Source: a virus
Lineage: Duplodnaviria > Heunggongvirae > Uroviricota > Caudoviricetes
IMG/VR virus record: IMGVR_UViG_2541047874_000005
Strand: one strand, 5' to 3'
DNA: 37,745 nt
Shown in pieces: positions 22,300-37,249 of the stretch. Within the stretch, counting starts at the first letter, position 1, and every line of letters begins with the position of its first letter. The notes beneath the pieces were generated by a model. That model was given only the letters and a program-made list of their open reading frames with translations. It was not told the origin of the DNA and ran no database searches. Position numbers and translations under genes: made by a program.

Positions 22300-22576
22300 C
22301 CGCAACAGCCACTTTGATATCTTCCTGGGTTCTCTGTGACTCCAGTGCGATCTGCTGTTTTGCATGTTGATTCGCCTCCTGAATGATGTTCGTTATTGCC
22401 ATAGTACGCAGAACATTCGCGGTGATAGTCTCAGTAGAATCAGCTCGCTGTTCCGCAGCATCAGCACGCTTCTGCTCCTCCAGAAACTTTCCATGATAGT
22501 GATTCGCTGACCAGACAAGACCACCAGCGACACAAGCAATAAACGTTAAAATGAGCGCCCAATAACTCATCTTCAT
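22184..22576 (-). CDS. Rz: i-spanin (Rz-like)
   Basis: 130 aa; N-terminal TM helix then charged helical periplasmic domain; directly downstream of the endolysin. Confidence 0.7.
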   Translation of the reverse strand: MKMSYWALILTFIACVAGGLVWSANHYHGKFLEEQKRADAAEQRADSTETITANVLRTMAITNIIQEANQHAKQQIALESQRTQEDIKVAVADDDCASRPVPAAAADRLRKYANSLRPGSGSSVTSQPDG

Positions 22577-23187
22577 ACCAGCAGCGCCGCCCGCGCCTTG
22601 TTGTATCGGACCTTACGATCCTCAATACCGTTCAAACCGCCGTTAATGATGCGCGTAACACGGTTAATATCGGCACCGTAGATCATGCAACCTTTAGAGG
22701 TGTAGAACCATGCAGCTGAGCGCGCAGCCTGTAGTTCCTGTTCCAGTTGTTCAGGTGAAGTCACCAGATCTAACTTCAGCGCCGCGCCACAGATGCGATA
22801 ATTATGGAGGCCAGTGATTTGAATTAATCCTCTACCACGATATTTCCAGCCATCACCTGGTGCTTTGTTACCCAGTCGGTTGCTATACACCAGATTGGCA
22901 ATAGCATCCTGACGAGCTGCATGTCCGGATGTTCTGCCAAGGGCATCAGCCTGCTGCTGTGTGATCCTCTTTCCGAACGTCGCCACCAGCGCAGATGGTG
23001 TGTAGTTAAAATTTTCAACTACGGCGCTAAACCCCATCGACTCATGGCCTACCTGAGCGATAAACATTGCCTGATCCGCTGGTGCTGTAATGCCGAATTC
23101 CTTCATCGCCGCATCAATGTGCGGAAACCAGCGCGCAGCCAGCCCGGCGCTAATACCAGCCGCCTTTTGAAATAATTGTTGGTTCAT
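22573..23187 (-). CDS. Endolysin, glycoside hydrolase family 19 (chitinase-like)
   Basis: 204 aa; GHESMGF and YRGRGLIQITGLHNY match GH19 catalytic motifs. Confidence 0.85.
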   Translation of the reverse strand: MNQQLFQKAAGISAGLAARWFPHIDAAMKEFGITAPADQAMFIAQVGHESMGFSAVVENFNYTPSALVATFGKRITQQQADALGRTSGHAARQDAIANLVYSNRLGNKAPGDGWKYRGRGLIQITGLHNYRICGAALKLDLVTSPEQLEQELQAARSAAWFYTSKGCMIYGADINRVTRIINGGLNGIEDRKVRYNKARAALLV

Positions 23188-23468
23188 TAGTGCCTCAGAT
23201 GATCAACCAGACGTGCAACGTTGCCTCTGACGGCCACCAGCACGGAAAGAAAAATAGTGTTCGCCACGATAATGGGCCATGAGGAATGGGGATAAATCCC
23301 ACAGAGATAGGCCAACGGAACAGCACTGTATGTAACAGTAATCAGCCAGGCTAAACGTGAAACCCAAGGACGATGCCGCGAATCACCACGACGATAAAAC
23401 ATCAGAGTAATAACAACACAAGCACATAACAGCGCATTTATAGTTGCTGTCGGGTCATTTAGCTCCAC
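23187..23468 (-). CDS. Holin-like/antiholin-like membrane protein
   Basis: 93 aa, 2-3 TM helices, charged C-terminus; immediately upstream of endolysin. Confidence 0.55.
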   Translation of the reverse strand: MELNDPTATINALLCACVVITLMFYRRGDSRHRPWVSRLAWLITVTYSAVPLAYLCGIYPHSSWPIIVANTIFLSVLVAVRGNVARLVDHLRH

Positions 23469-23841
23469 CTGAACCTCCCCGGCGCGTTATGAGCGCCACC
23501 AGCGAGCCGATATCCTGATTATTCAGGAACGTCAGGATTTTAACGGCTAAAGCAGAGACGATTACGGCACCAATAGCATCCAGAGGTTTATCACTGTATC
23601 CGGTCAAGTTCGCCAGCTTGGAGCCAACCAACCCAGAGCAAAGAATCCCGGCAATATATGACACGATAAAATATGCCAGTCGGCGCGATGCACTCAGATC
23701 TGCTGCTGTTGCTATGTAGAATACAGCCCCTGCAAATGCGCCAAATACAACGCCGTAATCAGTTCCGGTCAGCAGTCCATAAACACTGGCACCCGTCAGG
23801 GCACCACCAGCCAGCCCAGTACCGGAAATCGGATCGGACAT
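23455..23841 (-). CDS. Putative holin
   Basis: 128 aa, Gly/Ala-rich TM helices; first gene of the lysis cassette. Confidence 0.55.
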   Translation of the reverse strand: MSDPISGTGLAGGALTGASVYGLLTGTDYGVVFGAFAGAVFYIATAADLSASRRLAYFIVSYIAGILCSGLVGSKLANLTGYSDKPLDAIGAVIVSALAVKILTFLNNQDIGSLVALITRRGGSGGAK

Positions 23842-23920
23842 TTAGCCCCCTCTTAATTGCTGTTGGTCCTCTCAGATATGAGGGGAAGGGATCTTAATGA
23901 CAGTCTGTTTATTATTTCAG

Positions 23921-24177
23921 TCAAATACTACCCTGTTGATGATTTCTCAGAAGCGAACTTGACTCCCAAGGGAAACTCAACTTTCCGTTAAAACCACCAG
24001 CAGACATTCGTTCAATTTCCACAGAAATATCACTGAGCCGTTCTTCAAGCTCTGCTTTTTCTTTTACCAGACGGTTATAGCGGCTTAGATGAAGCTTTTG
24101 CTGCTCCAGCCAGTCTTCAAGCTGTTCAACAGTCATACCAGGGTTAAAAAAATATGGCTGCTGCTTTTCGCCCTGCA
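23921..24177 (-). CDS. Hypothetical protein, first ORF after tR'
   Basis: About 85 aa from the ATG at 24177 just after the terminator hairpin; the longer ORF in the track (to 24247) would span the terminator. Confidence 0.4.
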
Positions 24178-24189
24178 TTATTGACCTCC

Positions 24190-24220
24190 AGAAAAGCAAA
24201 AACCCCGCCGAAGCGAGGTT
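24190..24220 (-). terminator. tR'-like intrinsic terminator of the late leader transcript
   Basis: Minus strand CCTCGC-TTCG-GCGGGG hairpin (one G.U pair) followed by TTTTTGCTTTT; about 60-70 nt downstream of the putative PR'. Confidence 0.5.
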
Positions 24221-24328
24221 TGTTATGATTTCGTTAACGGCAGACATACAAAGCCCATCGTTAAGAGAATCCTAACCAAATTTTTTGAAAAATGCAAGAA
24301 TTACGTCGCCATCTTCGGCGAAAATCAT
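24221..24328 (-). promoter_or_regulatory. Putative late promoter PR' with Q-utilisation region
   Basis: Minus strand TTGCAT (24297..24292), 17 nt spacer, TAGGAT (24274..24269), immediately after the Q stop. Confidence 0.4.
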
Positions 24329-25081
24329 TTATCTTGTCACTTTTCTCAATTGTGTCTCTGCATATGCTTCTTCCTGCCAGCACTTTGTAACCAGTTTATC
24401 AATGACATCTGCATATCCTTTGTACCACTGATAATCCGTCAGATCCGGTACCAGCTTCTGGACATGATGCCGCGCCAGTGTGGTTGGTAAACGGCTAAAC
24501 CGGTTTCCATTGCAACGCCCACAAATCTTATAAACAGGCGCACCATGAAGCCGGGTTCTTTTTTCATCCAGTACAATACCTTTCCCCTTACACCCTCTGC
24601 ACGCTGTGCTGACCTCTCCCTTACCATGACAATGCTGACATAGTTCCTTCACCCACTCTTCCTTGATAACAGATTCCCCGCTTCTGGAGTGTTTCACCAC
24701 TTCGCGCAATACATTATGAAATCCAGTACCAGCACAATGCTCACAGCGAGCCTTACTTGCCGCAGACCTGGAATAATCAGCAAAGGCAAAATTCACAAGG
24801 TAAGGGATGATCTGTAACCGGGTTTCTTCACTCAATTTGTTCAATGTCGGGTTATCCAGTGCCATCGCGTAATTGAGCAGACCTTCAATCGCAAACTGAG
24901 GATCCTGAACACCAACTTTTGCCAGGAATAAGGCAAACCCAAGCGGTGCTTTCGACTGCACCATCCCCTGCGCAGCCATTACATCCGTAATTGTTAAACC
25001 ACCAGAGCCTGTCGCCGGTGCGTCATCGCTCAGTTTTGGAGATTTCGGGGAGTAATATTTCGGTAAGGCTTCAAGGTTCAT
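24329..25081 (-). CDS. Q: Late-gene antitermination protein Q
   Basis: About 250 aa from the ATG at 25081; multiple CxxC/HCH zinc-finger-like motifs; directly upstream of the late promoter/terminator and lysis genes. Confidence 0.75.
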   Translation of the reverse strand: MNLEALPKYYSPKSPKLSDDAPATGSGGLTITDVMAAQGMVQSKAPLGFALFLAKVGVQDPQFAIEGLLNYAMALDNPTLNKLSEETRLQIIPYLVNFAFADYSRSAASKARCEHCAGTGFHNVLREVVKHSRSGESVIKEEWVKELCQHCHGKGEVSTACRGCKGKGIVLDEKRTRLHGAPVYKICGRCNGNRFSRLPTTLARHHVQKLVPDLTDYQWYKGYADVIDKLVTKCWQEEAYAETQLRKVTR

Positions 25082-25094
25082 GCTCGTTCTCCAC

Positions 25095-26090
25095 TTACGC
25101 CAGCACGCCAATTGCCAGCGCACGATCGATAAAACGAAATATCAGCTCCAGCTGGGAGCCATACTTCTCTTCAAATGCCACGGTATCCGCATGCAGCTCG
25201 TCGTGATGCTTTCTGCACAAAGGCAACACAAAGAGGTCATGCGCTTTTGTACCCATTCCCCCCTGACCGTGGCCTATCAGGTGGTGGGGATCATCAGCTG
25301 GCTTTCCACAACATGCACACGGCTGTGTCTTAACCCAGCGCGTGTACTTTTCATTAACCCAGCGGCGACGTTTTGGGCGTAACATAAAAGACTCCGGCGA
25401 CTCCGGATCCACTTTCAGCGCCAGCACCTTTTTCGCTTTATCCTGGATAATGCTGGTGGCAGGAACCGAAGGAACAAGGTCACTCTCCCGGGTGACAGAC
25501 GGCACAACAGGCTTCGGTAATCTCAGTGCCTTACGGGCTGCACTTTCCGGTAAGGCATCCGCCAGGTCATTACGAACCAGCCACCAGCACAGTTCCGGCA
25601 TTGTCACAACGTGACTGTCATCAAAACCGAGATCACGGCGCACAACAGATAACACCCAGCGGGCACAGTTATCCGTTGCCATTGATTCCAGCCGTTCCGT
25701 GAACTGATCGCGCAACTGGTTATCGCAGTGCCAGCACAGACGGATTGCGCCCGGAGCGTGCCGCATTGTGGTCATGTTCTCGCTGTGCCAGTCGGAATGA
25801 GGCCACTGGCAGCCTTTTTCACGAAGTAACCAGCTTTCAAGACATTCCACGCCACCAGCACGACGGATCACTGCCTCATTGCGGAACACGGCCCGAACGG
25901 CAGGATCATCCGCCAGCGGTTGTGATGCCGCCGGAACGGCACCACTGGCGAAAGATGAATAACGTTCCGGCTCAGGCTCCAGCAGGACACGCCCCTGCAT
26001 AAACAGGGGCATCAGCTCTGAACCTGGCCTGAACAATACGATCCCCATACGCGGGGCAATTTCAGGGGTCAGTAGTGCTCTCACGGTCAC
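25095..26090 (-). CDS. DUF968-like prophage protein with C-terminal Cys/His cluster
   Basis: 331 aa; C-terminus CACCGK...HHLIGHGQGG...CRKHHDELH suggests a zinc-binding/HNH-like fold; recalled similarity to ydfU-type genes preceding Q. Confidence 0.55.
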   Translation of the reverse strand: MTVRALLTPEIAPRMGIVLFRPGSELMPLFMQGRVLLEPEPERYSSFASGAVPAASQPLADDPAVRAVFRNEAVIRRAGGVECLESWLLREKGCQWPHSDWHSENMTTMRHAPGAIRLCWHCDNQLRDQFTERLESMATDNCARWVLSVVRRDLGFDDSHVVTMPELCWWLVRNDLADALPESAARKALRLPKPVVPSVTRESDLVPSVPATSIIQDKAKKVLALKVDPESPESFMLRPKRRRWVNEKYTRWVKTQPCACCGKPADDPHHLIGHGQGGMGTKAHDLFVLPLCRKHHDELHADTVAFEEKYGSQLELIFRFIDRALAIGVLA

Positions 26091-26091
26091 C

Positions 26092-26901
26092 TCAATGAAC
26101 GGTATCGAGCAGCTTTAACAGCTCAGGGAATCGGGATTCGAAGAAATGCGGCTGCGTCTCGCGCGGATTTGCGGGACTGGTGATGTTCTTGCCGAACATG
26201 CAGCCTTTCGCTGTCAGCAACCAGAATTTTTTGATGTTGTTAATCGCAGTGCGGCTGTATCGTTCACGTTGTTCAACGATCCCCAGCTTCGCCATCTGGT
26301 GATATGCCTGATTAGCTGTCAGGCGGATACCATACTGCTTCAGCAGTGCACTCAGTGACAGCGTGGGGCGGCTTGAGCCATCAGGCGCGTCAGCAGGAGC
26401 ATCAATGGCATAGCGCGGTGCCAGATTCGGTAAGCCAACAGCCTCCTGAAGCTTCTGACAGGCTCCAAGCACTGATGAGTTAGACAGATTTAATTCCCGG
26501 CGCATAAAGTCCAGCAGGATCACGCCAGCCTGCATCTTGTCAGCAGCCTGTCCGGATAATTTTTCCGGTGCGCTGGTTACCATGTCGAAAGTACGGATCA
26601 CCTTCAGATGGAATGACGGGCTGATCCACATTGCATAGGCATACACCAGTTCTTTGCAGACATACGTCCCCTGGTTATTTCCGCCATTAATGACGCTAAC
26701 TGGTTGATTTTGTTCCAGAGGCGGAATTCCACCCTCGGTGAAAAGTTGTTCAATCAATTCACAGGTTTGCTTATTGGAGAGCCAGTATTTCGGGCGGTTT
26801 TTTTGTTCTCCCCCGGCAGCCCTGTGCAGATCGTTCAGGCTGTAACGCCCATAAGCATCACGACGAACTTCAATACCATCAATGACCATCAGATTATTCA
26901 T
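26092..26901 (-). CDS. KilA-N domain protein (antirepressor-like)
   Basis: About 269 aa from the ATG at 26901 (AGGAG RBS); N-terminal domain MVIDGIEVRRDAYGRYSLNDLHRAAGG...YVCKELVYAYAMWISPSFHLKVIRTF is KilA-N-like. Confidence 0.75.
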   Translation of the reverse strand: MNNLMVIDGIEVRRDAYGRYSLNDLHRAAGGEQKNRPKYWLSNKQTCELIEQLFTEGGIPPLEQNQPVSVINGGNNQGTYVCKELVYAYAMWISPSFHLKVIRTFDMVTSAPEKLSGQAADKMQAGVILLDFMRRELNLSNSSVLGACQKLQEAVGLPNLAPRYAIDAPADAPDGSSRPTLSLSALLKQYGIRLTANQAYHQMAKLGIVEQRERYSRTAINNIKKFWLLTAKGCMFGKNITSPANPRETQPHFFESRFPELLKLLDTVH

Positions 26902-26920
26902 ACTTCGTTTCTCCTCTTGA

Positions 26921-27310
26921 TCAGGCGGCTGCACCCGCCGTTTTCTCGTACTTACTGATGGTGATCTCGACCTTCCCTTTCGGGATAACCGGTCCCCACT
27001 CCACCAGCATTCTTTTCACCTGTCTGTCGTCTTCCCACACACCCGCGTGGGTCAACGCGTCAAACAGCGCCTTGTTATAGTTGTCCAGATCGCGGATCCG
27101 GTTATCCGGAGGAAACAACACGATCTCCACTGCAGCAGGTGCCGACGTTGGTTTTGGCAGACGACGTAACTGCTCAACTATTGCTGCGCACGCCGCGCTC
27201 TGAAATTTTCGCCCCGCCGCGCTTATCAGGCTCTTACCAGCAAATGCCCCTTTGTTGGGGTGTCGCCAGTACGTGTTCACGCTGGGCGGGAAAGGCAGGA
27301 TCAGCTTCAT
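26921..27310 (-). CDS. rusA: RusA-family Holliday junction resolvase
   Basis: 129 aa; LPFPPSVNTYWRH ... DLDNYNKALFDALTHAGVWEDDRQV match the RusA fold and acidic residues. Confidence 0.85.
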   Translation of the reverse strand: MKLILPFPPSVNTYWRHPNKGAFAGKSLISAAGRKFQSAACAAIVEQLRRLPKPTSAPAAVEIVLFPPDNRIRDLDNYNKALFDALTHAGVWEDDRQVKRMLVEWGPVIPKGKVEITISKYEKTAGAAA

Positions 27311-27633
27311 ACTTTCAGGCCTCTCTCATGTAACCAGTGGGTTGCACGCAGCCTGGCGTTTTCCTCACCGGCAAGCAGTGAGCGGATAATCCCGACCGCC
27401 TCGCTGTCGTCGTCCTTCACCGCGGTATGAAGAGTGATACCCCGGGCCACGCCACGCTTTATCGTGATGACGCCTTTTTTCTCCAGTGCGCGAAGATGTT
27501 CCACCGCTGCATTCACTGAACGGTATCCCAGCATGGTTGCCACCTCCTGATTGGTTGGCGGGAAGCCACGTTCTTTCTGGTAAGAAATCAGCATATCCAG
27601 CACCTGCTGCTGGCATTGAGTTAACGTCGTCAT
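27307..27633 (-). CDS. LexA N-terminal DNA-binding-domain-only protein (no S24 peptidase domain)
   Basis: 108 aa; residues 1-70 align with the LexA winged-helix DBD (QQQVLDMLISYQKERGFPPTNQEVATMLGYRSVNAAVEHLRALEKKGVITI); only about 38 further residues, no Ala-Gly site or Ser/Lys dyad. Confidence 0.75.
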   Translation of the reverse strand: MTTLTQCQQQVLDMLISYQKERGFPPTNQEVATMLGYRSVNAAVEHLRALEKKGVITIKRGVARGITLHTAVKDDDSEAVGIIRSLLAGEENARLRATHWLHERGLKV

Positions 27634-28316
27634 GCCGCCATCTCCCTGACCAGTTTTTCCGCCTGCTGGCGAACCTGCGCCAGAAACGCCTCACCACATG
27701 CCTCAAGTTCATCACGCCCGATGTAGCTGATTGCCGGTCCCTTCCAGGTCTTGTCGAAAACAGCAATAGCACCAGCGAAGAAAGCGCCTGTCGGCACCTG
27801 CTTCTCGTCCTTCGGTATAAACCAGGCAGGCAGTTCAAAACCAATACGCCCGCGAATAAAAGCAATATGATCTGCATCTTCCGGCCACCACACTTCGCTG
27901 GTGGCCGCTTTGATCAGGAAAACATAGCGCCCGCCCTTATCACGCATGACACTGGCATGTTTCATGATGTAACGCATGCCGGTGATGTATTGCCCCTCAT
28001 GCTGACTGGCGCGGCTGTATGGGGGATTACCAAAGGCAGCACCTTTAAGCTCCGCAAGACGTTCTGACCAGTCATGCGCCAGCGCGTTATCTTCCGCCGT
28101 GTAATACGCGGCACATTTGGCGTTATCACCGTCAGTAAACAGATCCAGAACAAACGGGCCAAACAGGGTGTTAATTCCCCAGAAAATGTTGTCCGGCGTG
28201 CGCCACTGATCGCCCACTTCCTTCAGTTCATGGGCTGGTTTGTTCCGCAGTTCCACCAGCGCCTGGCAATATTTATTACTCATTAAGCCCCCACGTAATT
28301 CCCTGACAGATACCAC
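27630..28316 (-). CDS. Phage-type DNA N6-adenine methyltransferase (orphan)
   Basis: 228 aa; motif IV FGNPPYS; no adjacent restriction endonuclease; likely start at internal M (MSNKYCQ) given overlap with the upstream gene. Confidence 0.8.
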   Translation of the reverse strand: MVSVRELRGGLMSNKYCQALVELRNKPAHELKEVGDQWRTPDNIFWGINTLFGPFVLDLFTDGDNAKCAAYYTAEDNALAHDWSERLAELKGAAFGNPPYSRASQHEGQYITGMRYIMKHASVMRDKGGRYVFLIKAATSEVWWPEDADHIAFIRGRIGFELPAWFIPKDEKQVPTGAFFAGAIAVFDKTWKGPAISYIGRDELEACGEAFLAQVRQQAEKLVREMAA

Positions 28317-28777
28317 TCTTCACCCGATGCAGCGCGCTTGCTGCTTTTCCGTAAGCACCGCTCACGACGCGCCAGAAAATTGTTTCGTTCTGGCTGGGAG
28401 TGGCTTTCACGGAATGCCGCCATCCACACGGTTGCAGCACGACGGTATAAGCCCCTGGACTCCAGTTCTTCAGCCTGGCGGGTCAGGCACAAAATCACCC
28501 GTGGATCGTTAGTGCCGACATAGAAATTGCGCACAGGTCTGGTTTCTCGAACTGGTTGTGGTTCCGGTTCCTGCGCTCTCTCAGTCAGGCGCGGGAAATG
28601 TCTGCGTGTATCTCCTTCACAACGGTGAGCCACACGCCCACTCTGACGTAACTTGCTTGCTGACTGCAGAACGCGCTGCCGTGAGTAACCTGCAAAAGCA
28701 TCCGCAATGTCTCCGGAAGTACACCCCGGATGGGCTTCAATGAATTTCTGAACTTCATTCAAAAGACTCATGATCAC
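28283..28777 (-). CDS. Protein with C-terminal PerC-like domain (putative transcriptional activator)
   Basis: 164 aa; C-terminal EELESRGLYRRAATVWMAAF...RRERCLRK matches my recollection of the PerC-family GLWRRAA.RW...RRE.CL motif. Confidence 0.45.
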   Translation of the reverse strand: MIMSLLNEVQKFIEAHPGCTSGDIADAFAGYSRQRVLQSASKLRQSGRVAHRCEGDTRRHFPRLTERAQEPEPQPVRETRPVRNFYVGTNDPRVILCLTRQAEELESRGLYRRAATVWMAAFRESHSQPERNNFLARRERCLRKSSKRAASGEEWYLSGNYVGA

Positions 28778-29592
28778 CCCCTGAATCCTTCCGGGATCTG
28801 GCTGTAGTCCACGTTGTCGTAACTGGCTTTGAAGTACGGGTCCTCGCGTCTGGCTGCAGATACCGCAGGAACTTCCCAGGATTCTTCGAAATGACGATCC
28901 GGACCAAAGAACGTGACAGCCTGTTTCACAAATTGTGTGCCGCTGTTACCCATCGCAGATACCCAGCCCGCGTAGCGTTTCACACCTTCCAGCATGGTTT
29001 CGGGGTTTACCCCCTCATTCAAACGGGCTTTCCAGGCTTTGAAGGCTGCAGATTTTGAATTGCCACCAGCACGTTTGGGATATACCAGCCATGCCTGCTC
29101 AAACTCCGGAGAGTATTCCGGTCGGTTTGAACGAACTCGCACGGACTCATCAACTGATGCACCAACAGCTATTGGTTCATTGACTGGTTCTTTGACTGGT
29201 TCAAAAGAGTGACTGGTTCTGGGTGAATCTCCTGCACTACCACCTGGTGCAACTCCTGCACTACCTGGTGAATTTGCTGCACCAGATAGTGAATTATTTG
29301 CACTACCCCCTAGTGAATCTCCTGCACCATCCAGATGAAGGAGATAGATATTACTTGAGTTACCTTTTTCACCTTTCCGGGTGACTTTTTTTACCAGCCC
29401 GGACTCACAAAGGGCCGCAATATGATTCATCACAGAACGTTTGCTAATCTCGCACTGGTCAGCAATATGCTGGTAGCTGGGCCAGCACTCACCCTGATCG
29501 CTGGCATTATCAGCCAGCTTGATCAGAACCAGTTTTCGCAATGGATTACCCACTCGAATTTTCATCGCTTTAACCATCAGCTCCATACTCAT
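28774..29592 (-). CDS. Putative replication initiation protein (N-terminal wHTH, low-complexity linker, C-terminal domain)
   Basis: 272 aa; N-terminal winged-helix-like VLIKLADNASDQGECWPSYQHIADQCEISKRSVMNHIAALCESGLV; Gly/Ser/Ala/Asn repeat linker encoded by tandem DNA repeats; lambda-O-like architecture. Confidence 0.55.
   Translation of the reverse strand: MSMELMVKAMKIRVGNPLRKLVLIKLADNASDQGECWPSYQHIADQCEISKRSVMNHIAALCESGLVKKVTRKGEKGNSSNIYLLHLDGAGDSLGGSANNSLSGAANSPGSAGVAPGGSAGDSPRTSHSFEPVKEPVNEPIAVGASVDESVRVRSNRPEYSPEFEQAWLVYPKRAGGNSKSAAFKAWKARLNEGVNPETMLEGVKRYAGWVSAMGNSGTQFVKQAVTFFGPDRHFEESWEVPAVSAARREDPYFKASYDNVDYSQIPEGFRG
29180..29340. repeat. Iteron-like tandem repeats inside the replication gene (candidate origin)
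   Basis: Three copies of GACTGGTTC (29182..29219) and about five degenerate 21-24 bp units of the form GTGAATCTCCTGCACTACC (29220..29335). Confidence 0.45.
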
Positions 29593-29825
29593 GCTGCACC
29601 TCCGAGATGCTTCATGTTTTTTCCGGAGCGAAAGGCTATAAGCGGCATACTGACGCGGTAATTACGGCCCAGCGGTTCACAAACCACCTTCTGACATTCA
29701 CGGTCAACCAGGCTAACACGTAGAACATGCCCTGCAGGCGTGGTGTACCACTGCCCAACTGTAGGAATTGATGTTTTTTTACGCTGAAGTAAACGGCGAA
29801 TATTGAGGCTCAACAGATTAAGCAT
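29589..29825 (-). CDS. Small hypothetical protein
   Basis: 78 aa ORF with start/stop overlaps to both neighbours; basic. Confidence 0.4.
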   Translation of the reverse strand: MLNLLSLNIRRLLQRKKTSIPTVGQWYTTPAGHVLRVSLVDRECQKVVCEPLGRNYRVSMPLIAFRSGKNMKHLGGAA

Positions 29826-30654
29826 GACGATGCCCTCCGCTGATATTCAGGAGACGGTGAATATGAAAATTAGCCTTATCCGCCAGACGAATACGTTCAG
29901 CCTGCAAGTTAAGAAGGGTTTCTACCAAAACCTGATGCGCCTGCGGATCCGAAAGAGTTACCTTGCGCAGAGCACGTAGTGCAGTTGTTACATAACTGAG
30001 TTTATGTAAGTCTTCATCATTCAGACGAGTGAGGGCTGGGACAGTAGCCATGATGGCAGCCTCCTTGATCGGTGAAATACTTCCACCACCGGAAACGCCA
30101 ATTTCGCTGGTGGTGAACTGAACGGGGTTGGCGTAACCGGTGATCAAGGAAACCGGCGCATCTTTCGATGCCCCCGCCCAGCCCACCATAACTTTGATGT
30201 GAGCAAATGCGGACGATAAAAAAGACGCTGGCGCGTCATATATCGCCTTGATCAATTCCAGGACGCCAATCCCGGCACCCGCTTTATAAGGTGCCTGAAC
30301 AGTGTAACGTCCCGGAATGGCAGAATCAATGTGCTGGTGGTCCTTCACACTCAACAAAATCACGCCTGAATTTCCACAAAGGACTAAAGCACTCATGCGG
30401 GTAGTCTTTGCGAAGATAGATAACGCGCTGTGTTTCTGGCTCCCAACGAATAACATGAACATAAAGTCCTCTTCCGTCACGAAACCAGCGGTTAAGTTCC
30501 TGCACAACTCGCCCCCCACAGTCAGGTAAAGTTCTCTGTGGTTACTTACAGCCAGGTGATTTGGTAATCTGCATTCATGCCGTAACAACAGGTGTTCAGC
30601 GACACTGACCACCAGCTGTTGCGACAAACGGTTATTTGCCGTTAAACTGTTCAT
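29818..30654 (-). CDS. Hypothetical early protein
   Basis: 278 aa; between CII-like and replication genes; no Walker motif; no family recognised. Confidence 0.5.
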   Translation of the reverse strand: MNSLTANNRLSQQLVVSVAEHLLLRHECRLPNHLAVSNHRELYLTVGGELCRNLTAGFVTEEDFMFMLFVGSQKHSALSIFAKTTRMSALVLCGNSGVILLSVKDHQHIDSAIPGRYTVQAPYKAGAGIGVLELIKAIYDAPASFLSSAFAHIKVMVGWAGASKDAPVSLITGYANPVQFTTSEIGVSGGGSISPIKEAAIMATVPALTRLNDEDLHKLSYVTTALRALRKVTLSDPQAHQVLVETLLNLQAERIRLADKANFHIHRLLNISGGHRHA

Positions 30655-31214
30655 GCGTTAGTTTCTCCACAGACACAAAACGCCACGACGCCCGGAGCTG
30701 CACACTCGCGGGCGTCACTCTTTTCTGGAGCGCAAAAGATTTTGTAGACCAGTGCTGCATGCTCCTGGAGCTTCGAAATTGACAGATACAACTCATCATT
30801 AATTGCTGTCTGCTCGTGTGGCTCCACTACCCCATCTTCGATTGCCGAACGAATCTGCTTTGAGTAACTCCCGATCTGTTCGATGACTTCCAGCAGGCGC
30901 TGGTTTATATCGGCGTTCTCTACTTCCTCAATTTCAGGAAGCGATACAAACACCCCACCAGCAGACTGTGCGACAGCATCCGCAATGTAGTGAGTGCCAG
31001 CCGCGCGCTGTAAAATCATTGCCCATCCCAGCGGGAAAATCTGATCGCCATCTGCACGAAGGCGGTTGAATAAAGCGTTCTCTGTTACATCCAGCCACTC
31101 AGCAGCTTCAGCGTAACCCCCCGGCAACGCCGCGATAGTTTTTCTGACAGCTTTCACGTACCACTCAGGCTGTTTTTCTACTTTCCAGTGATGCTTACCC
31201 ACGGTTAGCCTCAT
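30651..31214 (-). CDS. Putative CII-like regulatory protein (tentative)
   Basis: 187 aa, first gene after cro-like; family assignment by position and size only. Confidence 0.4.
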   Translation of the reverse strand: MRLTVGKHHWKVEKQPEWYVKAVRKTIAALPGGYAEAAEWLDVTENALFNRLRADGDQIFPLGWAMILQRAAGTHYIADAVAQSAGGVFVSLPEIEEVENADINQRLLEVIEQIGSYSKQIRSAIEDGVVEPHEQTAINDELYLSISKLQEHAALVYKIFCAPEKSDARECAAPGVVAFCVCGETNA

Positions 31215-31536: not shown

Positions 31537-32211
31537 ATGAAAACAGTCCATGACATCCGGCGGTCTAACGCCAGAAAACTGAGAGATGGTGTTGGCGGGA
31601 ATTCTTCCTTTGCCACCATGATTGATCGCGAGCCAACCCAGACCAGCAGGTTTATGGGAGATGGTGCTACTAAAAATATCGGTGACAGCATGGCACGGCA
31701 CATCGAAAAATGTTTCGACCTGCCTGTCGGATGGCTTGATCAAGAACACCAGACAACAAACATCACAAAAAAACCTGATGTTTCAATTACTAACAAACAA
31801 ATAACGTTAGTCCCTGTCATATCATGGGTACAGGCCGGAGCATGGAAAGAAGTTGGCTATTCTGAGGTTGATTTGAGCACAGCAGAAACTTATCCCTGCC
31901 CTGTACCCTGTGGCGAAATGACTTATATCTTGCGGGTGATTGGTGATTCAATGATTGATGAGTACCGCCCGGGAGACATGATTTTTGTTGATCCCGAAGT
32001 CCCTGCCTGCCACGGTGACGACGTTATTGCATTGATGCACGATACAGGCGAAACCACCTTCAAGCGATTGATAGAAGATGGAACACAGCGTTATCTCAAA
32101 GCATTAAACCCAAACTGGCCTGAGCCTTACATTAAGATTAACGGTAATTGCTCTATAATTGGTACAGTAATTTTCTCAGGAAAACCAAGAAGATACAAAA
32201 TAAAGGCCTAA
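31537..32211 (+). CDS. cI: CI-type prophage repressor with S24 (LexA-like) autopeptidase domain
   Basis: 224 aa; C-terminal VIGDSM...GD...K and a QAG cleavage-site-like motif; N-terminal HTH-like region; divergent from cro. Confidence 0.85.
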   Translation: MKTVHDIRRSNARKLRDGVGGNSSFATMIDREPTQTSRFMGDGATKNIGDSMARHIEKCFDLPVGWLDQEHQTTNITKKPDVSITNKQITLVPVISWVQAGAWKEVGYSEVDLSTAETYPCPVPCGEMTYILRVIGDSMIDEYRPGDMIFVDPEVPACHGDDVIALMHDTGETTFKRLIEDGTQRYLKALNPNWPEPYIKINGNCSIIGTVIFSGKPRRYKIKA

Positions 32212-32222: not shown

Positions 32223-32246
32223 AACCTGCTTCGGCAGGTTTTTTTA
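32223..32246 (+). terminator. Rho-independent terminator after cI
   Basis: ACCTGC-TTCG-GCAGGT hairpin followed by TTTTTTT. Confidence 0.7.
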
Positions 32247-32249
32247 TAC

Positions 32250-32286
32250 TTGACAATGTACCCTTGAGATACATAATGTATCTCAA
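32250..32286 (+). promoter_or_regulatory. PL-like early-left promoter with palindromic operator
   Basis: TTGACA (32250..32255), 16 nt spacer, CATAAT (32272..32277); perfect palindrome TTGAGATACAT-A-ATGTATCTCAA (32264..32286) overlapping the -10. Confidence 0.6.
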
Positions 32287-32760
32287 AGAAACATGCCACA
32301 GGCAAGATTAAACAAAATTTGGTTGTAACACGGCGTATGGCACATGCGTCGTTAGCGGTCTGGGGACGTTAAAGGGGACAATCCACTCCTTGCTCGGGCA
32401 AACAAACCAGGTAGCCGGAATGTGCAAGTCAATGATGATGCTGATAAGACGCCTAACCAGCGTGGCGGTTCGGTTTGACACCTGGGAAGAGACCAGGGTG
32501 CAACGATGAGGGCATTTATGGAACCGCGACAAAGTGTGGTGCCGTAACTGGCTAAGTGCTCTCAGCGTTGTGGTGAATGCGCAGGCTGATGCGCGAAAGA
32601 CATTGCAGCTAATGCGGAAAAGAGCTGTTCGGCGGGGCAATTAAACGCCCGTGAGAGTCTGAAATAACCGCAAGCCGGAGATCAGCACCGGTCACCACAA
32701 CAGCCACTGCTTTGGCGGTACCAGTTTGTACACTTGCTTCCGGCTGGTACCGTCCTTTTT
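32287..32760 (+). ncRNA. Candidate noncoding leader/sRNA from the PL-like promoter, ending in a DicF-like hairpin
   Basis: No ORF over 29 codons on + strand across about 450 nt after the promoter; terminal segment CTTTGGCGGTACCAGTTTGTAC resembles my recollection of the DicF core. Confidence 0.3.
32714..32760 (+). terminator. Strong intrinsic terminator hairpin (tL-like / sRNA 3' end)
   Basis: GGCGGTACCAG (32714..32724) pairs with CTGGTACCGTCC (32744..32755), 11 bp with one G.U, followed by TTTTT. Confidence 0.6.
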
Positions 32761-32897
32761 ACAAAACAGAGAAGAGCATCACCGGACGACGGGCTCATAA
32801 CCCAATCCATCCGGGCGGCTGCCACCGCAGGTGTTCTTCTCTGTTTTGTGGAGAAACTAATCGGCCTTGCAGGGTCGATATGATGAGGAGCAGCAAA

Positions 32898-33260
32898 ATG
32901 GCTAGCGAACGCAGTACTGATGTGCAGGCATTTATCGGGGAGCTGGACGGCGGCGTATTTGAAACCAAAATCGGCGCAGTTCTCAGTGAAGTCGCTTCCG
33001 GTGTGATGAACACGAAAACCAAAGGTAAGGTCTCACTCAACCTGGAAATCGAACCATTTGATGAGAACCGTGTGAAAATCAAACACAAACTCTCATATGT
33101 TCGCCCGACTAACCGCGGGAAAATTTCCGAAGAAGACACCACCGAAACGCCGATGTATGTCAATCGCGGTGGTCGCCTGACTATTCTGCAGGAAGACCAG
33201 GGACAATTACTGACTCTTGCCGGTGAACCTGACGGAAAACTCCGCGCAGCAGGTCATTAA
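32898..33260 (+). CDS. YfdP-like hypothetical protein
   Basis: 120 aa from ATG at 32898 (AGGAG RBS 7 nt upstream); same length and position as yfdP in the K-12 CPS-53 yfdPQRS cluster (recalled). Confidence 0.55.
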   Translation: MASERSTDVQAFIGELDGGVFETKIGAVLSEVASGVMNTKTKGKVSLNLEIEPFDENRVKIKHKLSYVRPTNRGKISEEDTTETPMYVNRGGRLTILQEDQGQLLTLAGEPDGKLRAAGH

Positions 33261-33324
33261 TACGTTATTAATAAACTGATTATTTATCTCATCACTGAAT
33301 ATCTTTATATAGTGAGGACTTATT

Positions 33325-34149
33325 ATGTCTCAGAACTTAGACGCAACCGCAATTAATCAAATCCATGCCCTTATTTCTGCTCAGGGTGTTAATGAAATTA
33401 TCAGTAATATTGGTGCCGACGCAGTGGCATTACCTGAAAATTTCCGCATTCATGATCTGGAAAAATTTAATTTAAATCGCTTCCGTTTCCGTGGTGCGCT
33501 TTCCACTGCCAGCATCGATGACTTTACCCGTTATTCTAAAGATCTTGCAGATGAAGGCACCCGCTGCTTTATCGATGCCGATAATATGCGAGCAGTCAGT
33601 GTGCTTAACCTGGGTACTATTGATGAACCAGGTCACGCAGATAATACCGCCACTCTCAAACTGAAAAAGACAGCACCGTTCTCTGCTCTGTTGTCTGTTA
33701 ACGGCGAGCGTCATTCCCAGAAGTCACTGGCAGAATGGATTGAAGACTGGGCCGACTACCTTGTGGGCTTTGATGCTAATGGTGACGCTATTCAGGCAAC
33801 AAAAGCGGCTGCGGCTGTCCGTAAAATCACGATTGAAGCAAACCAGACCGCTGATTTTGAAGATAATGACTTCAGCGGCAAACGCTCCCTGATGGAGTCT
33901 GTCGAAGCGAAAACCAAAGATATTATGCCAGTGGCATTTGAATTTAAATGCGTTCCGTTTGAAGGTCTGAAAGAACGTCCATTTAAATTACGCCTCAGCA
34001 TTATCACTGGCGATCGTCCTGTACTGGTTCTGCGCATTATTCAGCTGGAAGCAATGCAAGAAGAAATGGCTAACGAATTTCGTGATCTGCTTGTTGAGAA
34101 ATTCAAAGACAGCAAAGTAGAAACCTTTATTGGTACTTTCACCGCCTGA
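33325..34149 (+). CDS. YfdQ-like protein (DUF2303)
   Basis: 274 aa, identical length to K-12 YfdQ as I recall it; follows the yfdP-like gene. Confidence 0.6.
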
Positions 34150-34276
34150 TTTCATTACTGCAAATGCCCCTGCGGGGGCATTTATGGAAACGTAATTAAC
34201 TCAATAATCACCGGATGGTGAGGGATTCTTTTTAGCAGAATTCAGCGCGGTGCAGCGCATATACGTGGAGAACAAA

Positions 34277-34813
34277 ATGTCATTTATTAAAACTTTTTCC
34301 GGGAAGCATTTTTATTATGACAGGATAAATAAAGACGACATCGATATTAACGATATCGCGGTTTCCCTTTCAAATATCTGTCGCTTTGCAGGACATCTTT
34401 CACACTTCTACAGTGTCGCCCAGCATGCGGTGCTTTGCAGCCAACTGGTGCCGCAGGAATTTGCTTTTGAAGCGTTAATGCATGATGCAACAGAAGCGTA
34501 TTGCCAGGACATCCCCGCACCACTAAAACGCCTTCTTCCTGACTATAAACGGATGGAAGAAAAAATAGACGCCGTAATCCGTGAGAAATACGGGTTACCT
34601 CCTGTTATGAGCACGCCAGTGAAATATGCCGATCTCATCATGCTGGCAACCGAACGCCGCGATCTCGGACTTGATGATGGCTCTTTCTGGCCTGTATTGG
34701 AAGGTATCCCGGCAACAGAGATGTTCAAAGTGATTCCACTGGCTCCAGGCCATGCCTACGGGATGTTTATGGAACGTTTTAACGAGTTATCGGAGTTACG
34801 CAAATGCGCATGA
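34277..34813 (+). CDS. YfdR-like HD-domain phosphohydrolase (putative 5'-deoxynucleotidase)
   Basis: 178 aa from MSFIKTF; H...HD-type motif (ALMHDATEAY) consistent with the HD superfamily. Confidence 0.6.
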   Translation: MSFIKTFSGKHFYYDRINKDDIDINDIAVSLSNICRFAGHLSHFYSVAQHAVLCSQLVPQEFAFEALMHDATEAYCQDIPAPLKRLLPDYKRMEEKIDAVIREKYGLPPVMSTPVKYADLIMLATERRDLGLDDGSFWPVLEGIPATEMFKVIPLAPGHAYGMFMERFNELSELRKCA

Positions 34814-35166
34814 ATGTTTTCGAAATGGAAGGGTTTCTTCGCGGGAAATGTGTACCGCAAGATCTGAAAGTGAACGAAACAAATGCTGAGTACCTGGTAC
34901 GTAAATTCGATGCGCTTGAAGCTAAATGTGCGGCACTGGAAAACAAAATAATACCAGTGTCAGCTGAACTACCACCAGCAAATGAAAGTGTTCTGTTATT
35001 TGATGCTAACGGAGAAGGCTGGCTGATTGGCTGGCGTTCTCTCTGGTACACCTGGGGACAAAAAGAAACCGGAGAATGGCAGTGGACATTTCAGGTCGGG
35101 GACATTGAAAGCGTCAATATCACTCACTGGGCAGTAATGCCAAAAGCACCGGAGGCTGGAGCATAA
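34804..35166 (+). CDS. YfdS-like protein (DUF551-like C-terminus)
   Basis: 120 aa; C-terminal ITHWAVMPKAPE motif; overlaps the upstream stop. Confidence 0.55.
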   Translation: MRMNVFEMEGFLRGKCVPQDLKVNETNAEYLVRKFDALEAKCAALENKIIPVSAELPPANESVLLFDANGEGWLIGWRSLWYTWGQKETGEWQWTFQVGDIESVNITHWAVMPKAPEAGA

Positions 35167-35786
35167 TGACCACATTTACCGATAAAGAACTGATTAAAGA
35201 AATCAAAGAGCGTATCAGCAGCCTGGAGGTTCGAGACGATATTGAGCGCCGTGCTTATGAAATTGCTCTGGCATCGCTGGAAGAGGAGCCGGTGGCATGG
35301 CTACATTCAGACAATGACTTAGGTATTCCAGCAATAACCAGGAGTAAAAACATTGCTGACAGTTGGTTATCAAAGGGCTGGTATGTTCAGCCGCTATATA
35401 TAGCCAAGCCAGTGCCGGTGGTGCCAGATGCTCGTCCGACTTTAAATAATGGCATAGTCGGTTTTGATGAAGGCTGGAACGCCTGCCGCGCCACCATGCT
35501 TCACGGTGTCAAACCTGTAAGCCAGACTTACAAGTTGAACAAGCTGTCTGGCAACTCTCCGGTAACTCCGGATGGTTGGATAAGCTGTAGTGAGCGAATG
35601 CCGAACGATAAACAATATGTTTGGTGTTGGGGTAAGTCTTACGGCTGGACTGAGTGCGATACCTTCGAAGGGTATTACGATTGTTCGAGAAACAAATGGT
35701 GGGCAGTTACTGACGATGGGGAAGAACCGGCATTGAAAGTAACCCACTGGATGCCGCTACCGGAACCGCCGCAGGAGGTGAAGTAA
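35166..35786 (+). CDS. Hypothetical protein with DUF551-like C-terminal motif
   Basis: 206 aa; C-terminal VTHWMPLPEPP resembles the YfdS-like C-terminus; N-terminal coiled-coil-like region. Confidence 0.5.
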   Translation: MTTFTDKELIKEIKERISSLEVRDDIERRAYEIALASLEEEPVAWLHSDNDLGIPAITRSKNIADSWLSKGWYVQPLYIAKPVPVVPDARPTLNNGIVGFDEGWNACRATMLHGVKPVSQTYKLNKLSGNSPVTPDGWISCSERMPNDKQYVWCWGKSYGWTECDTFEGYYDCSRNKWWAVTDDGEEPALKVTHWMPLPEPPQEVK

Positions 35787-36358
35787 TGAATAACTTAATG
35801 ATCGACCTTGAGACGATGGGGAAAAATAAGGATGCACCGATCGTTTCCATTGGCGCGGTGTTCTTCACTCCAGAAACCGGAGACATCGGACAAGAATTCT
35901 ATACGGTTGTTAGCCTAGAAAGTGCTATGGGGCAAGGAGCTACACCTGACGGCGATACCATCCTGTGGTGGTTGAAACAGAGCTCTGAAGCACGAGCTGC
36001 AATCTGTATTGATGATACTTTGTCGATCAGCGATGCACTCTCTGAACTGAGCCATTTCATTAATCAGCATGCAGACAATACAAAATATTTAAAAGTCTGG
36101 GGTAACGGGGCCACCTTCGACAACGTAATTTTACGTGGAGCTTACGAGCGAGCAGGACAAATCTGCCCGTGGGCGTACTGGAATGACCACGATGTACGCA
36201 CGATCGTTACGCTTGGGCGTTCCATCGGATTCGACCCAAAAATGGACATGCCTTTCGATGGAGAACGGCACAACGCCCTGGCTGATGCCCGTCATCAGGC
36301 AAAATATGTTTCCGCTATCTGGCAGAAACTAATTCCTGCCACCAGCACAGAATTATGA
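35786..36358 (+). CDS. DEDD-family 3'-5' exonuclease (DnaQ-like)
   Basis: 190 aa; MIDLETMG (Exo I D-x-E), WGNGATFDNVIL (Exo II), HNALADARH (Exo III, DEDDh). Confidence 0.75.
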   Translation: MNNLMIDLETMGKNKDAPIVSIGAVFFTPETGDIGQEFYTVVSLESAMGQGATPDGDTILWWLKQSSEARAAICIDDTLSISDALSELSHFINQHADNTKYLKVWGNGATFDNVILRGAYERAGQICPWAYWNDHDVRTIVTLGRSIGFDPKMDMPFDGERHNALADARHQAKYVSAIWQKLIPATSTEL

Positions 36359-36394: not shown

Positions 36395-36667
36395 ATGAAC
36401 ACCTTGTTTTTACTGATGGCTGAATTCAATACCCCAAACATTGAACTCTCAGCAGTTAGTCAAAAATACTTTGGTATGAGTCCAGCCACAGCAGAAGCAA
36501 AAGCAAACGCTTGTAAGTTGCCTGTACCTACATATCGCATCGGTACATCACAAAAAGCAAAACGCTGCATCAACATTCAGGATCTTGCGGAATATATTGA
36601 CAAAAGACGGGAAGAAGGGCGAGCTGAGTGGGAAAAAGTCAGAACGGAAAAACAAAAATATAACTAA
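36395..36667 (+). CDS. Excisionase-like / PrtN-family DNA-binding protein
   Basis: About 90 aa from ATG at 36395 (GGAG RBS); LPVPTYRIG...INIQDLAEYIDKRREE matches PrtN/Xis-like winged-helix proteins; last gene of the early-left operon. Confidence 0.55.
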   Translation: MNTLFLLMAEFNTPNIELSAVSQKYFGMSPATAEAKANACKLPVPTYRIGTSQKAKRCINIQDLAEYIDKRREEGRAEWEKVRTEKQKYN

Positions 36668-36683
36668 ACTAAAACTATGGATA

Positions 36684-36709
36684 ACCCGTATATGTACGGG
36701 TTATTTTTC
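36684..36709 (+). terminator. Terminator after the xis-like gene (overlaps the convergent gene's stop)
   Basis: ACCCGTA-tatg-TACGGGT hairpin followed by TATTTTT. Confidence 0.55.
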
Positions 36710-37249
36710 TTTATCACTATCTTTTCTTGATTTGAACAATCCACTAACAACGAAACCAACCAAACCAACAATACTAATTGTACTTGTACCTAGTAATGCA
36801 ACGATCGCTTCAACTGGAGGCTTTCCTTCATGTGCAATAAGAAACGATGTAAACATTGCGACAACGAATAAGCACCAACACGACATAAACCAAACCGTGA
36901 ATGAGGCCATTTTTGTCCGAAGCTCATTGTCTATTTCTTTACCAGTTGCGTCAGCTATCTTATCCCGTACTTGTGATTTGAGCATATCAAGCTGAGCTTG
37001 AAGACTGTCCATTCTGTTCTGCTGCATAAACTCATGCAATGCACCAGTATTAGAACCAAACTCTTCTGCCTCCAGAATAGCTTTATTTTCTGAAGAAGAA
37101 TCATCGTCGCTCTCATGATTAGACGGCTCAAATGCAGATTTAAAAATCTGTTCTTGACTGTCAGTAGAGTTTAAGGATGCTTCAGAGCGACCATTTTCAA
37201 CACCTGCGGCCGCTCCGATAAGTTTATAGATATCTGAATTGTGAGACAT
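36701..37249 (-). CDS. Small membrane protein, candidate toxin/effector partner of the Panacea protein
   Basis: 182 aa; acidic Ser-rich N-terminal region, helical middle, two C-terminal TM helices; AT-rich; 22 nt after the Panacea gene. Confidence 0.6.
   Translation of the reverse strand: MSHNSDIYKLIGAAAGVENGRSEASLNSTDSQEQIFKSAFEPSNHESDDDSSSENKAILEAEEFGSNTGALHEFMQQNRMDSLQAQLDMLKSQVRDKIADATGKEIDNELRTKMASFTVWFMSCWCLFVVAMFTSFLIAHEGKPPVEAIVALLGTSTISIVGLVGFVVSGLFKSRKDSDKEK

Follow-up and report, generated by a model that had tools for sequence, protein, structure and literature searches.

In lambdoid phages, the early-left operon between cI and xis is the slot of recombination (Rec) modules such as Red of lambda, RecET of Rac and Erf/Abc of P22. 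Recently, phage LLS was reported, together with 71 further lambdoid phages, to carry no Rec module, and their genomes are strongly enriched in Chi sites that are oriented for RecBCD entry at the right cos end (PMC12315714). LLS grows more poorly without RecB or RecC (PMC12315714, Genome Res 2025), and its gp37-39 represent yfbR/yfdR-, yfdQ- and yfdP-type genes (PMC12315714). Genes of the yfdP/Q/R type also occur in phage ArgO145 together with a full Rec module, and they were judged unlikely to be hidden recombinases; moreover, sporadic DnaQ-type nucleases near int are not members of Rec modules, and an O-type gene is the sole replication gene in 34 of 314 lambdoid phages (PMC12315714). Here we describe a stretch of 37,745 nucleotides (nt) from a virus of the class Caudoviricetes (IMG/VR record IMGVR_UViG_2541047874_000005), in the following called the window, with an early-left operon of yfd-type genes at positions 32898-36358 on the plus strand. 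A preliminary description of this DNA had recognised yfdPQRS-like genes, an HD phosphohydrolase and a DEDD exonuclease in the operon, together with the lack of a recombinase.

The second closely related system is the CPS-53 (KpLE1) prophage of Escherichia coli K-12, in which yfdP-yfdQ-yfdR-yfdS-yfdT-torI represent the same genes in the same order as in the window. Noguchi and Katayama found yfdQRST as a multicopy suppressor of over-initiation, and the start of replication at oriC was inhibited, in vivo as well as in vitro, by over-produced yfdQRS or yfdQRT (PMC4776307). Furthermore, purified YfdR binds to domain I of DnaA in a Phe46-dependent manner and competes moderately with DiaA and DnaB, which use the same Phe46 site (PMC4776307). 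These data are the sole direct functional evidence for the cluster. On balance, it seems probable to us that the window contains an early-left (pL) operon under repressor control, which belongs to a lambdoid prophage of the SfV/ST64B/LLS type with a myovirus tail and dusA as its integration site, and that this operon acts as an accessory module of host takeover and not of recombination.

Absence of a recombination module and excess of Chi sites

Compared to the Red, RecET and Erf/Abc modules, the window operon is devoid of a single-strand annealing protein (SSAP), a 5'-3' exonuclease and an anti-RecBCD protein. No SSAP of the Red-beta/RecT, Erf, Sak or Sak4 type was found by Pfam and PHROGs searches among the open reading frames (ORFs) of the operon and the early-right region, or in a near-identical prophage annotated with the Prokaryotic Genome Annotation Pipeline (PGAP). 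The same coverage revealed neither a 5'-3' exonuclease (lambda Exo/YqaJ, RecE) nor an anti-RecBCD protein (Gam, GamL, Abc2). The sole nucleases in the prophage are the DEDDh 3'-5' exonuclease of the operon, RusA and HNH proteins. In the PHROG scan of the early-right genes, RusA was accompanied only by a single O-like initiator, by regulators, by a methylase and by an HNH protein, and among these RusA alone is related to recombination. The earlier statement that a recognisable recombinase is missing from the operon holds for the whole prophage as covered by Pfam, PHROG and PGAP.

The Chi sequence GCTGGTGG occurs 23 times in the window, compared to an expectation of 1.58 ± 1.34, which corresponds to a 14-fold excess, and 19 of the 23 copies are situated on the minus strand, i.e. 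the strand of the late genes. The Chi density of the window is approximately three times that of the E. coli chromosome. The densest cluster, with 13 co-oriented sites, reaches from the lysis genes to cII ( Table 1 ), beside the junction of lysis and terminase genes, and would lie close to the right-hand end of the virion DNA, if this end and cos are placed as the gene order suggests. Two Chi sites, at 34972 and 36339, fall within the yfd operon. Our recount of Chi in LLS gave 23 sites with 20 on the top strand, which agrees with the published figure (PMC12315714).

In its gene order, which is that of a lambdoid phage without Rec module, as well as in the number, strand and clustering of Chi, the window prophage is of the LLS functional type. 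The absent Rec functions are accounted for by the Chi enrichment, which would hand these functions to host RecBCD, and judged from this excess the prophage appears to rely on the host enzyme. The absent recombinase was already explained in print: it is the hallmark of the class of LLS-type lambdoid phages published in 2025, and the window closely reproduces this Chi-rich, RecBCD-dependent class.

The operon genes and their possible functions

The six consecutive ORFs of the operon encode proteins of 120, 274, 178, 120, 206 and 190 amino acids (aa). In the preliminary description, the first four lengths were matched to those of K-12 yfdP-yfdQ-yfdR-yfdS, with which they agree exactly. The identity of the cluster was also borne out by BLASTP against K-12 MG1655 (97.5-99.2% identity, full length in all four cases), with the order P-Q-R-S kept on one strand, and the operon DNA is 96.7% identical to CPS-53 of MG1655 over 2413 nt. 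Profile searches confirmed DUF2303, DUF551 and the DnaQ-like DEDD exonuclease, while the HD domain was weak in Pfam and strong in PHROG 318; NCBIfam gave nothing informative for the operon proteins. Nevertheless, CPS-53 differs from the window in several respects. It is truncated, since its homology begins 19 nt before yfdP, without the repressor, pL and the leader RNA described below; a short YfdT replaces the 206-aa DUF551 protein, the exonuclease is missing, and the excisionase is TorI and not of the PrtN type. The first 42 aa of the 206-aa protein are 93% identical to K-12 YfdT. The last four genes are tightly coupled in translation, with overlaps of 10 nt between yfdR and yfdS and of 1 nt each between yfdS and the 206-aa gene and between the latter and the exonuclease gene, whereby the 206-aa gene has an ATGA start-stop overlap at both ends. 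The gap between the exonuclease gene and xis amounts to 9 nt from the ORF start at 36368 or to 36 nt from the PGAP start, which was adopted here ( Table 1 ) from the near-identical prophage.

Table 1. Features of the yfd operon, its control region and the main Chi cluster (positions refer to the window).
Feature	Position	Strand	Evidence and remarks
13 co-oriented Chi sites	22521..30962	-	densest cluster; lysis genes to cII
CI-type repressor, LexA-like S24 peptidase, e14 YmfK type	31537..32211	+	Peptidase_S24 E=1.5e-26; PHROG 4 repressor
Intrinsic-terminator-like hairpin and T-run after cI	32223..32240	+	terminator scan; closes cI transcript
pL promoter candidate TTGACA-16-CATAAT	32250..32277	+	promoter scan; 11/12 consensus matches
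Perfect 23-bp palindrome over -10 hexamer	32264..32286	none	candidate OL operator; unique in window, 0 expected
Leader domain 1, boxA-like TGCTCT and boxB-like hairpin GCGCAGGCUGAUGCGC	32555..32701	+	cross-genus BLASTN blocks, 92-100% identity
Terminator-like hairpin GGCGGUACCAG...CUGGUACCGUC, then U5 run	32713..32760	+	minimum free energy (MFE) fold
Structured leader RNA	32755..32860	+	outer stem of ~22-25 bp (22 covarying pairs in model) around three-way junction
Inner hairpin CGGGCUCAUAACCC	32790..32803	+	14/14 nt identical to anticodon stem-loop of E. coli initiator tRNA-fMet
yfdP	32898..33260	+	120 aa; new Pfam PF27127; 99.2% identical to K-12 YfdP
yfdQ	33325..34149	+	274 aa; DUF2303 E=7e-92; 98.2% identical to K-12 YfdQ
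yfdR	34277..34813	+	178 aa; HD-domain 5'-deoxynucleotidase; 97.8% identical to K-12 YfdR
yfdS	34804..35166	+	120 aa; C-terminal DUF551 E=1.7e-4; 97.5% identical to K-12 YfdS
Gene of 206-aa protein	35166..35786	+	N-terminus YfdT/Ea22-like; C-terminus DUF551 E=5e-18
DEDDh 3'-5' exonuclease gene	35786..36358	+	190 aa; Rv2179c-like PF16473 E=1.9e-75
xis, excisionase of PrtN family	36395..36667	+	PF11112 E=3.9e-23; PHROG 1300 excisionase
Bidirectional terminator hairpin closing operon after xis	36679..36706	both	terminator scan

To see which of these genes belong together, we took one locus per species for YfdQ homologues of 41-98% identity, 80 loci in all, and clustered the neighbouring ORFs; 76 of the loci contain a full YfdQ. 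YfdP is encoded immediately upstream of YfdQ in 62 of the 76, and in 10 more our crude ORF picker, which took the longest ORF, called an antisense ORF in its place. The corresponding antisense ORF of the window (122 aa, 32795-33163, minus strand) overlaps yfdP and is almost certainly spurious. YfdR follows next or next-but-one downstream of YfdQ in 50 of the 76 loci, the exonuclease is found in 20, always at the site between YfdR and xis, and the DUF551 genes vary. In other loci, the same slot harbours genes for a MazG-like dATP/dGTP pyrophosphohydrolase, ParB-like, DndB-like and Ea22-like proteins, methyltransferases or a single-stranded DNA-binding protein (SSB). YfdPQ were detected in Enterobacterales, Pseudomonas, Xanthomonas and, among marine gammaproteobacteria, in Photobacterium and Marinobacter; for example, the pair is present in the Pseudomonas phages PG1 and LPPA56 and, at 39% (YfdP) and 38% (YfdQ) identity, in the Xanthomonas phages CP2 and MET23-P3, where Erf, a YqaJ-type exonuclease and SSB follow. 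No Rec gene was found among the 25 most frequent of 63 Pfam families in the 150 downstream gene clusters from the 76 species, whereby a rare singleton Rec gene could lie outside these commonest families. The conserved unit is YfdP-YfdQ alone, and the nucleotidase and the exonuclease are a frequent but loose association in a mosaic operon. The preliminary description was right about the presence of an HD nucleotidase and an exonuclease, but their proposed union in one functional module finds little support: YfdP-YfdQ are the only fixed pair, and six of the 20 exonuclease loci are without YfdR.

Few immediate-early phage gene pairs are as widespread in Gammaproteobacteria as YfdP-YfdQ, which have no known fold. 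The AlphaFold2 (AF2) models of YfdQ and YfdP, with predicted local distance difference test (pLDDT) scores of 76 and 73, showed no significant match in the PDB and no recombinase fold. A homologue of YfdQ with 40% identity is contained in PDB entry 9o7m, which was deposited with 36 chains and whose source sequence is 98.8% identical to YfdQ of the CP2-like Xanthomonas phage MET23-P3 (L005 6959-7783). This suggests that YfdQ forms a large homo-oligomer, of approximately 1 MDa if 9o7m represents the true assembly. Our literature search found no paper for 9o7m, a preprint on the cryo-electron microscopy of the CP2-like phage PhiXacm4-11 is silent on this entry, and the Grad-seq paper contains nothing on the sedimentation of YfdQ. 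The YfdQ family comprises 1769 clusters at 50% identity (profile search in 1.84 billion proteins), and no domain fusion was found in the top 150 of them, which are all single-domain proteins of at most about 300 aa.

YfdP-YfdQ might be regarded as an unrecognised annealase or DNA-end-binding pair that acts with the 3'-5' exonuclease in a cryptic recombination module, in place of Red, RecET or Erf. The operon slot is usually occupied by Rec modules, YfdQ would be multimeric, as annealases are, judged from the 36 chains of 9o7m, the pair stands just upstream of Erf-exo-SSB in Xanthomonas phages, in other phages the same leader RNA stands before an RdgC-like gene, and a K-12 yfdQ deletion was sensitive to methyl methanesulfonate according to a report cited in PMC4776307. 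However, YfdP-YfdQ coexist with a complete set of Erf, YqaJ-type exonuclease and SSB in CP2 and MET23-P3, the cluster is found alongside a full Rec module in ArgO145 (PMC12315714), both AF2 models match no recombinase fold, and the Chi enrichment already accounts for the absent Rec functions. Hence, the recombination role that had been considered possible for the operon is very unlikely.

YfdR would provide the link to host replication, and the published action on DnaA and oriC is the likeliest role of the cluster in lytic growth. It matched PHROG 318, a deoxynucleoside monophosphate (dNMP) phosphatase family, with E=2.5e-110 and the HD protein Atu1052 (PDB 2gz4) with E=6e-14, and the match to Pfam YfbR-like (E=2.8e-5) scored 24.3, slightly below the cut-off of 25.9. 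The metal-binding motif is intact (H50, H69-D70), and following the annotation of its 97.8%-identical K-12 counterpart, YfdR would be a dNMP-specific phosphatase. If the operon serves host takeover, induction or infection would fire pL, and transcription would pass the structured leader with its internal terminator. The conserved pair YfdP and YfdQ, the latter as a large homo-oligomer, would be the first products, and YfdP, YfdQ and YfdR together with the DUF551 protein would shut down initiation on the host chromosome, which may free DnaB-DnaC for a phage with an O-like initiator and no helicase loader. Such an equipment makes interference with the DnaA-DnaB contact an attractive assumption. 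The gene of the DexA-like exonuclease beside xis would be an accessory one that is shuffled independently and serves to scavenge DNA or to trim ends, and concatemers and recombination would be left to host RecBCD-RecA at Chi, with RusA as the resolvase of junctions. The focus of this scenario on YfdR and DnaA rests on the published overexpression data and is moderately secure.

However, several observations weigh against host takeover by the yfd genes and against parts of the scenario. The oriC effect was seen on multicopy overexpression only, for which the authors allow an artefact, deletion of yfdQRST had no phenotype, and YfdQ, YfdS and YfdT did not bind strongly to YfdR or DnaA in pull-downs (PMC4776307). 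YfdP has no known function and YfdQ no known biochemical activity. Moreover, YfdR and the exonuclease are missing from many yfdPQ loci, so that their joint action is not required, the RecBCD dependence of this prophage is a prediction, and cos and the "right end" are placed by gene order only.

Instead of the replication machinery, the operon could target host immunity. Its HD phosphohydrolase and DEDD exonuclease would then destroy nucleotide second messengers or nucleic-acid signals of the immune response, and YfdP/YfdQ would act as a sponge-like oligomer which sequesters a defence component. Such an anti-defence module would be well placed right after pL in immediate-early position, its slot holds MazG-like, DndB-like, ParB-like and methyltransferase genes of counter-defence or accessory type in relatives, YfdQ is a high-order oligomer judging from the 36-chain deposit, and the gene content is mosaic and quickly shuffled. 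But, apart from a generic DEDDh model, the operon proteins matched no PADLOC family, our literature search showed no experimental link to any defence system, and dNMP dephosphorylation is the only annotated activity of YfdR. Furthermore, the spread of YfdPQ from Enterobacterales to Marinobacter speaks for a conserved host target and against a patchy defence system. Overall, we consider an anti-defence function rather unlikely.

The exonuclease has a complete catalytic set with D7 and E9 (ExoI, D-x-E), D112 (ExoII) as well as H162 and D167 (ExoIII, H-x4-D), and its match to PF16473 is full length (residues 2-179, 177 model positions). A phmmer match with E=6.5e-9 identifies T4 DexA (PDB 8kel/8ken, named in PMC12153337) as a distant homologue; both share the DEDDh set, but DexA has 227 aa compared to 190 aa, and the alignment spans residues 3-140 only. 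Another DexA homologue of E. coli, EcD (HREX), protects against T4 and is distinguished by the loss of an Asp at the tetramer interface, where D90 of DexA corresponds to Ala78 in EcD (PMC12153337). The exonuclease could in principle degrade incoming modified T-even DNA in the manner of EcD, so that the operon would benefit the lysogen by superinfection exclusion, with YfdQ and YfdS providing the stress tolerance reported for CPS-53. The homology to DexA, the T4 protection by one E. coli homologue (PMC12153337), the retention of the cluster in the degraded K-12 prophage and the H2O2 sensitivity that PMC4776307 mentions for yfdQ and yfdS deletions of CPS-53 point in this direction. However, Ser80 and Asp83 of the window exonuclease align with S87 and D90 of DexA in the phmmer alignment, and because both residues are kept, with Asp83 where EcD has Ala, an assignment to the anti-T4 EcD type was rejected under the criterion of PMC12153337. 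Moreover, the operon genes should be silent in the lysogen, because they are situated behind a repressor-controlled promoter and an internal terminator. A benefit for the lysogen as the main function of the operon is thus improbable.

A structured leader RNA between pL and yfdP

The repressor gene directly upstream of the operon is named ymfK or LexA family in the near-identical prophage. The pL candidate downstream of it is defined by its consensus match only, and its activity is a prediction. Half sites related to the palindrome over its -10 hexamer occur at 31452-31470 in the cI-cro intergenic region. At the other end of the operon, the bidirectional terminator faces a convergent Panacea gene pair. 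The leader of approximately 620 nt between pL and yfdP contains short, unconvincing ORFs alone, and neither a convincing ORF nor an N-like gene was visible in it.

Stretches of this leader are better conserved across genera than the proteins (BLASTN). Leader domain 1 is closed by a 10-bp long-range helix of GUUGUGGUGA (32567-76) with UCACCACAAC (32692-701) in the MFE fold, and its boxA- and boxB-like elements are suggestive of a nut-like function. The following terminator-like hairpin with its T-run is retained at the same position across genera (alignment A3). A real, conserved cis-acting RNA at 32755-32860 is well supported by comparative sequence data. This stretch folds with an RNAfold z-score of -5.5, and when 25 sequences that represent about 20 genera were aligned, compensatory changes were seen in 14 of 38 pairs. 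In the covariance-model alignment, 97.7% of the cells were paired, compared to 40-57% in slid controls, and double changes affected 12 of 35 pairs versus 6.1 ± 1.4 in shuffles, a number reached in none of 500. The covariance model R1 scores the window leader RNA with 112 bits. Among the 80 species loci, 30 contain a copy that scores above 90 bits and four more a weaker one, always as a single copy per locus on the operon strand. It detected no second copy elsewhere in the window. In phage LLS (L288 31769-31899, minus strand), the leader RNA scores 108 bits right upstream of yfdP. Rfam 15 contained no match for the leader at the gathering threshold and, for 32200-32950, no relevant one up to E<=10; in the scan of the whole window, C4 and IsrK were the only hits, at 30.1-30.3 kb. 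This leader RNA is unreported before.

The RNA lies upstream of yfdP in 60 of 81 IMG/VR contigs. In the other 21 it precedes yfdR, an RdgC-like gene (305-321 aa, a label assigned by eye), another ORF or xis. The RdgC-like gene follows in L170, L185, L190, L195, L196, L218, L221, L222, L233, L241, L257 and L259, and yfdR stands directly behind the RNA in L168, L175-L177, L182, L237 and L255. Hence, as it precedes varied genes, the RNA belongs to the pL leader and not to yfdP. Two of the loci with enterobacterial-type yfdPQ regions and an enterobacterial leader RNA come from assemblies labelled "Chryseobacterium sp. 18061" (L134) and "Geobacteraceae bacterium" (L141, a metagenome-assembled genome), which is probably due to contamination or mis-binning.

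Within the three-way junction, the inner hairpin CGGGCUCAUAACCC has three G-C pairs that close the loop CUCAUAA, and its columns are invariant in the alignments A3 and A4. Its 14-mer occurs once in the window with 0 expected. The initiator tRNA-fMet gene sequence to which it is identical was verified in 5426 of 5426 E. coli genomes. The hairpin may thus mimic tRNA-fMet. A tRNA gene or a remnant of a phage attachment site (attP) was rejected, since ARAGORN finds no tRNA and the identity to the tRNA does not extend beyond the anticodon arm of 14 nt. Together with numerous G-U pairs, the covariation indicates an RNA from the plus strand rather than a tRNA or attP remnant.

The closest described counterpart of the leader is the put RNA of HK022, a cis-acting processive antiterminator that depends on the zinc-binding domain of the beta' subunit of RNA polymerase. 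In both cases, the nascent RNA of an N-less phage is structured in the stretch from pL to the first gene, with a terminator-like hairpin nearby. However, put consists of two adjacent stem-loops, whereas the window leader RNA has a long stem with a three-way junction, and with the filters of model R1 switched off, the best score in the whole HK022 genome was 15.3 bits (E=0.12). The assumption of a putL/putR pair was rejected, as the window has no second copy and no counterpart of putR. The LLS authors also guessed a put-like mechanism (PMC12315714). It is possible, though we would advance it only tentatively, that the nut-like block, the terminator and the three-way-junction RNA constitute an undescribed class of cis-acting RNA gating an immediate-early operon, whose conserved core of YfdP and a possibly megadalton YfdQ assembly would have a new fold and act on a host target. 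On this view, N-less lambdoid phages could use the RNA for put-like processive antitermination. Another possibility is that its mimicry of tRNA-fMet serves to engage the 30S P site, initiation factor 3 (IF3) or methionyl-tRNA synthetase (MetRS), or makes it a decoy or sensor for anticodon nucleases against initiator tRNA, e.g. VapC.

The prophage and its relation to phage LLS

The window represents most of a prophage, whose nearest complete relative is integrated between dusA and zur in E. coli MIN14 (98.7% identity over 99% of the 25 kb compared). The MIN14 prophage starts with int, DinI, tail fibres and a Mu/P2-like baseplate, sheath and tube, followed by an HK97-type head, a P27-type terminase, HNH and lysis genes. 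Next come a Q-like antiterminator, DUF968/HNH, KilA-N, RusA, a repressor-like gene, Dam methylase and PerC, and then an O-like/DnaD-like initiator, an Ash-like regulator accompanied by the RNAs C4 and IsrK, and cII-like, cro and cI (YmfK type) genes. The yfd operon, the PrtN-type Xis and the convergent Panacea pair at the prophage end complete the order. PHROG scans of the early-right ORFs of the window are in agreement with this order. In the window, the sole replication gene (28774-29592, minus strand) encodes the O-like initiator, whose C-terminal part is DnaD-like, and the PHROG scans showed neither a helicase nor a loader for one. The C4 antisense RNA (30106-30193, 82 bits) and the IsrK RNA (30218-30294, 64 bits), both on the minus strand, lie inside or beside the Ash-like regulator gene, and resemble an antirepressor control of the P1/P7 immI type in a lambdoid immunity region. 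Between xis and the prophage end, the minus strand contains a gene with a Panacea domain (SocA-like antitoxin) and a gene for a 182-aa protein (36701-37249 and 37272-37745), the latter with a hydrophobic stretch near the C-terminus as seen by eye. The pair, for which PADLOC gave no match, is probably a toxin-antitoxin or defence moron.

The operon itself is ordinary, very widespread and already known, with annotations in thousands of genomes. Among 5426 complete E. coli genomes, 3971 match part of its 4-kb region, and in 180 a single site contains 80% or more of the region. Matches also exist in 409 phage records, among them SfV, mEp460, many Stx phages and relatives of ST64B. At least 1000 contigs carry the exact exonuclease sequence, and RefSeq already names yfdP, the YfdQ family, yfdR 5'-deoxynucleotidase, DUF551 and 3'-5' exonuclease.

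The comparison with LLS summarises what is shared within the class and what is not. In LLS, the repressor gene is likewise followed by a gap (628 nt; approximately 630-690 nt across LLS and the window prophage), yfdP, yfdQ, the dNMP phosphatase gene, two small genes, a DnaQ-like exonuclease gene of the same size (190 aa, 573 nt) and xis. LLS also has 23 Chi sites that are mostly co-oriented, an O-like gene as its only replication gene, no N and the leader RNA. However, LLS has a lambda-like siphovirus virion module, is integrated in the tmRNA gene and carries int beside xis, whereas the window prophage has a Mu/P2-like contractile tail, uses dusA, has the Panacea pair and the prophage end after xis, and would have its int at the other prophage end by homology to the MIN14 prophage. 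LLS proteins are 76-90% identical to those of ST64B (PMC12315714), which makes them relatives but not the same phage. The residual interest lies in the YfdP-YfdQ pair and in the strongly covarying leader RNA. Since this RNA is also present in LLS, which can be grown in the laboratory, both questions are directly testable there.

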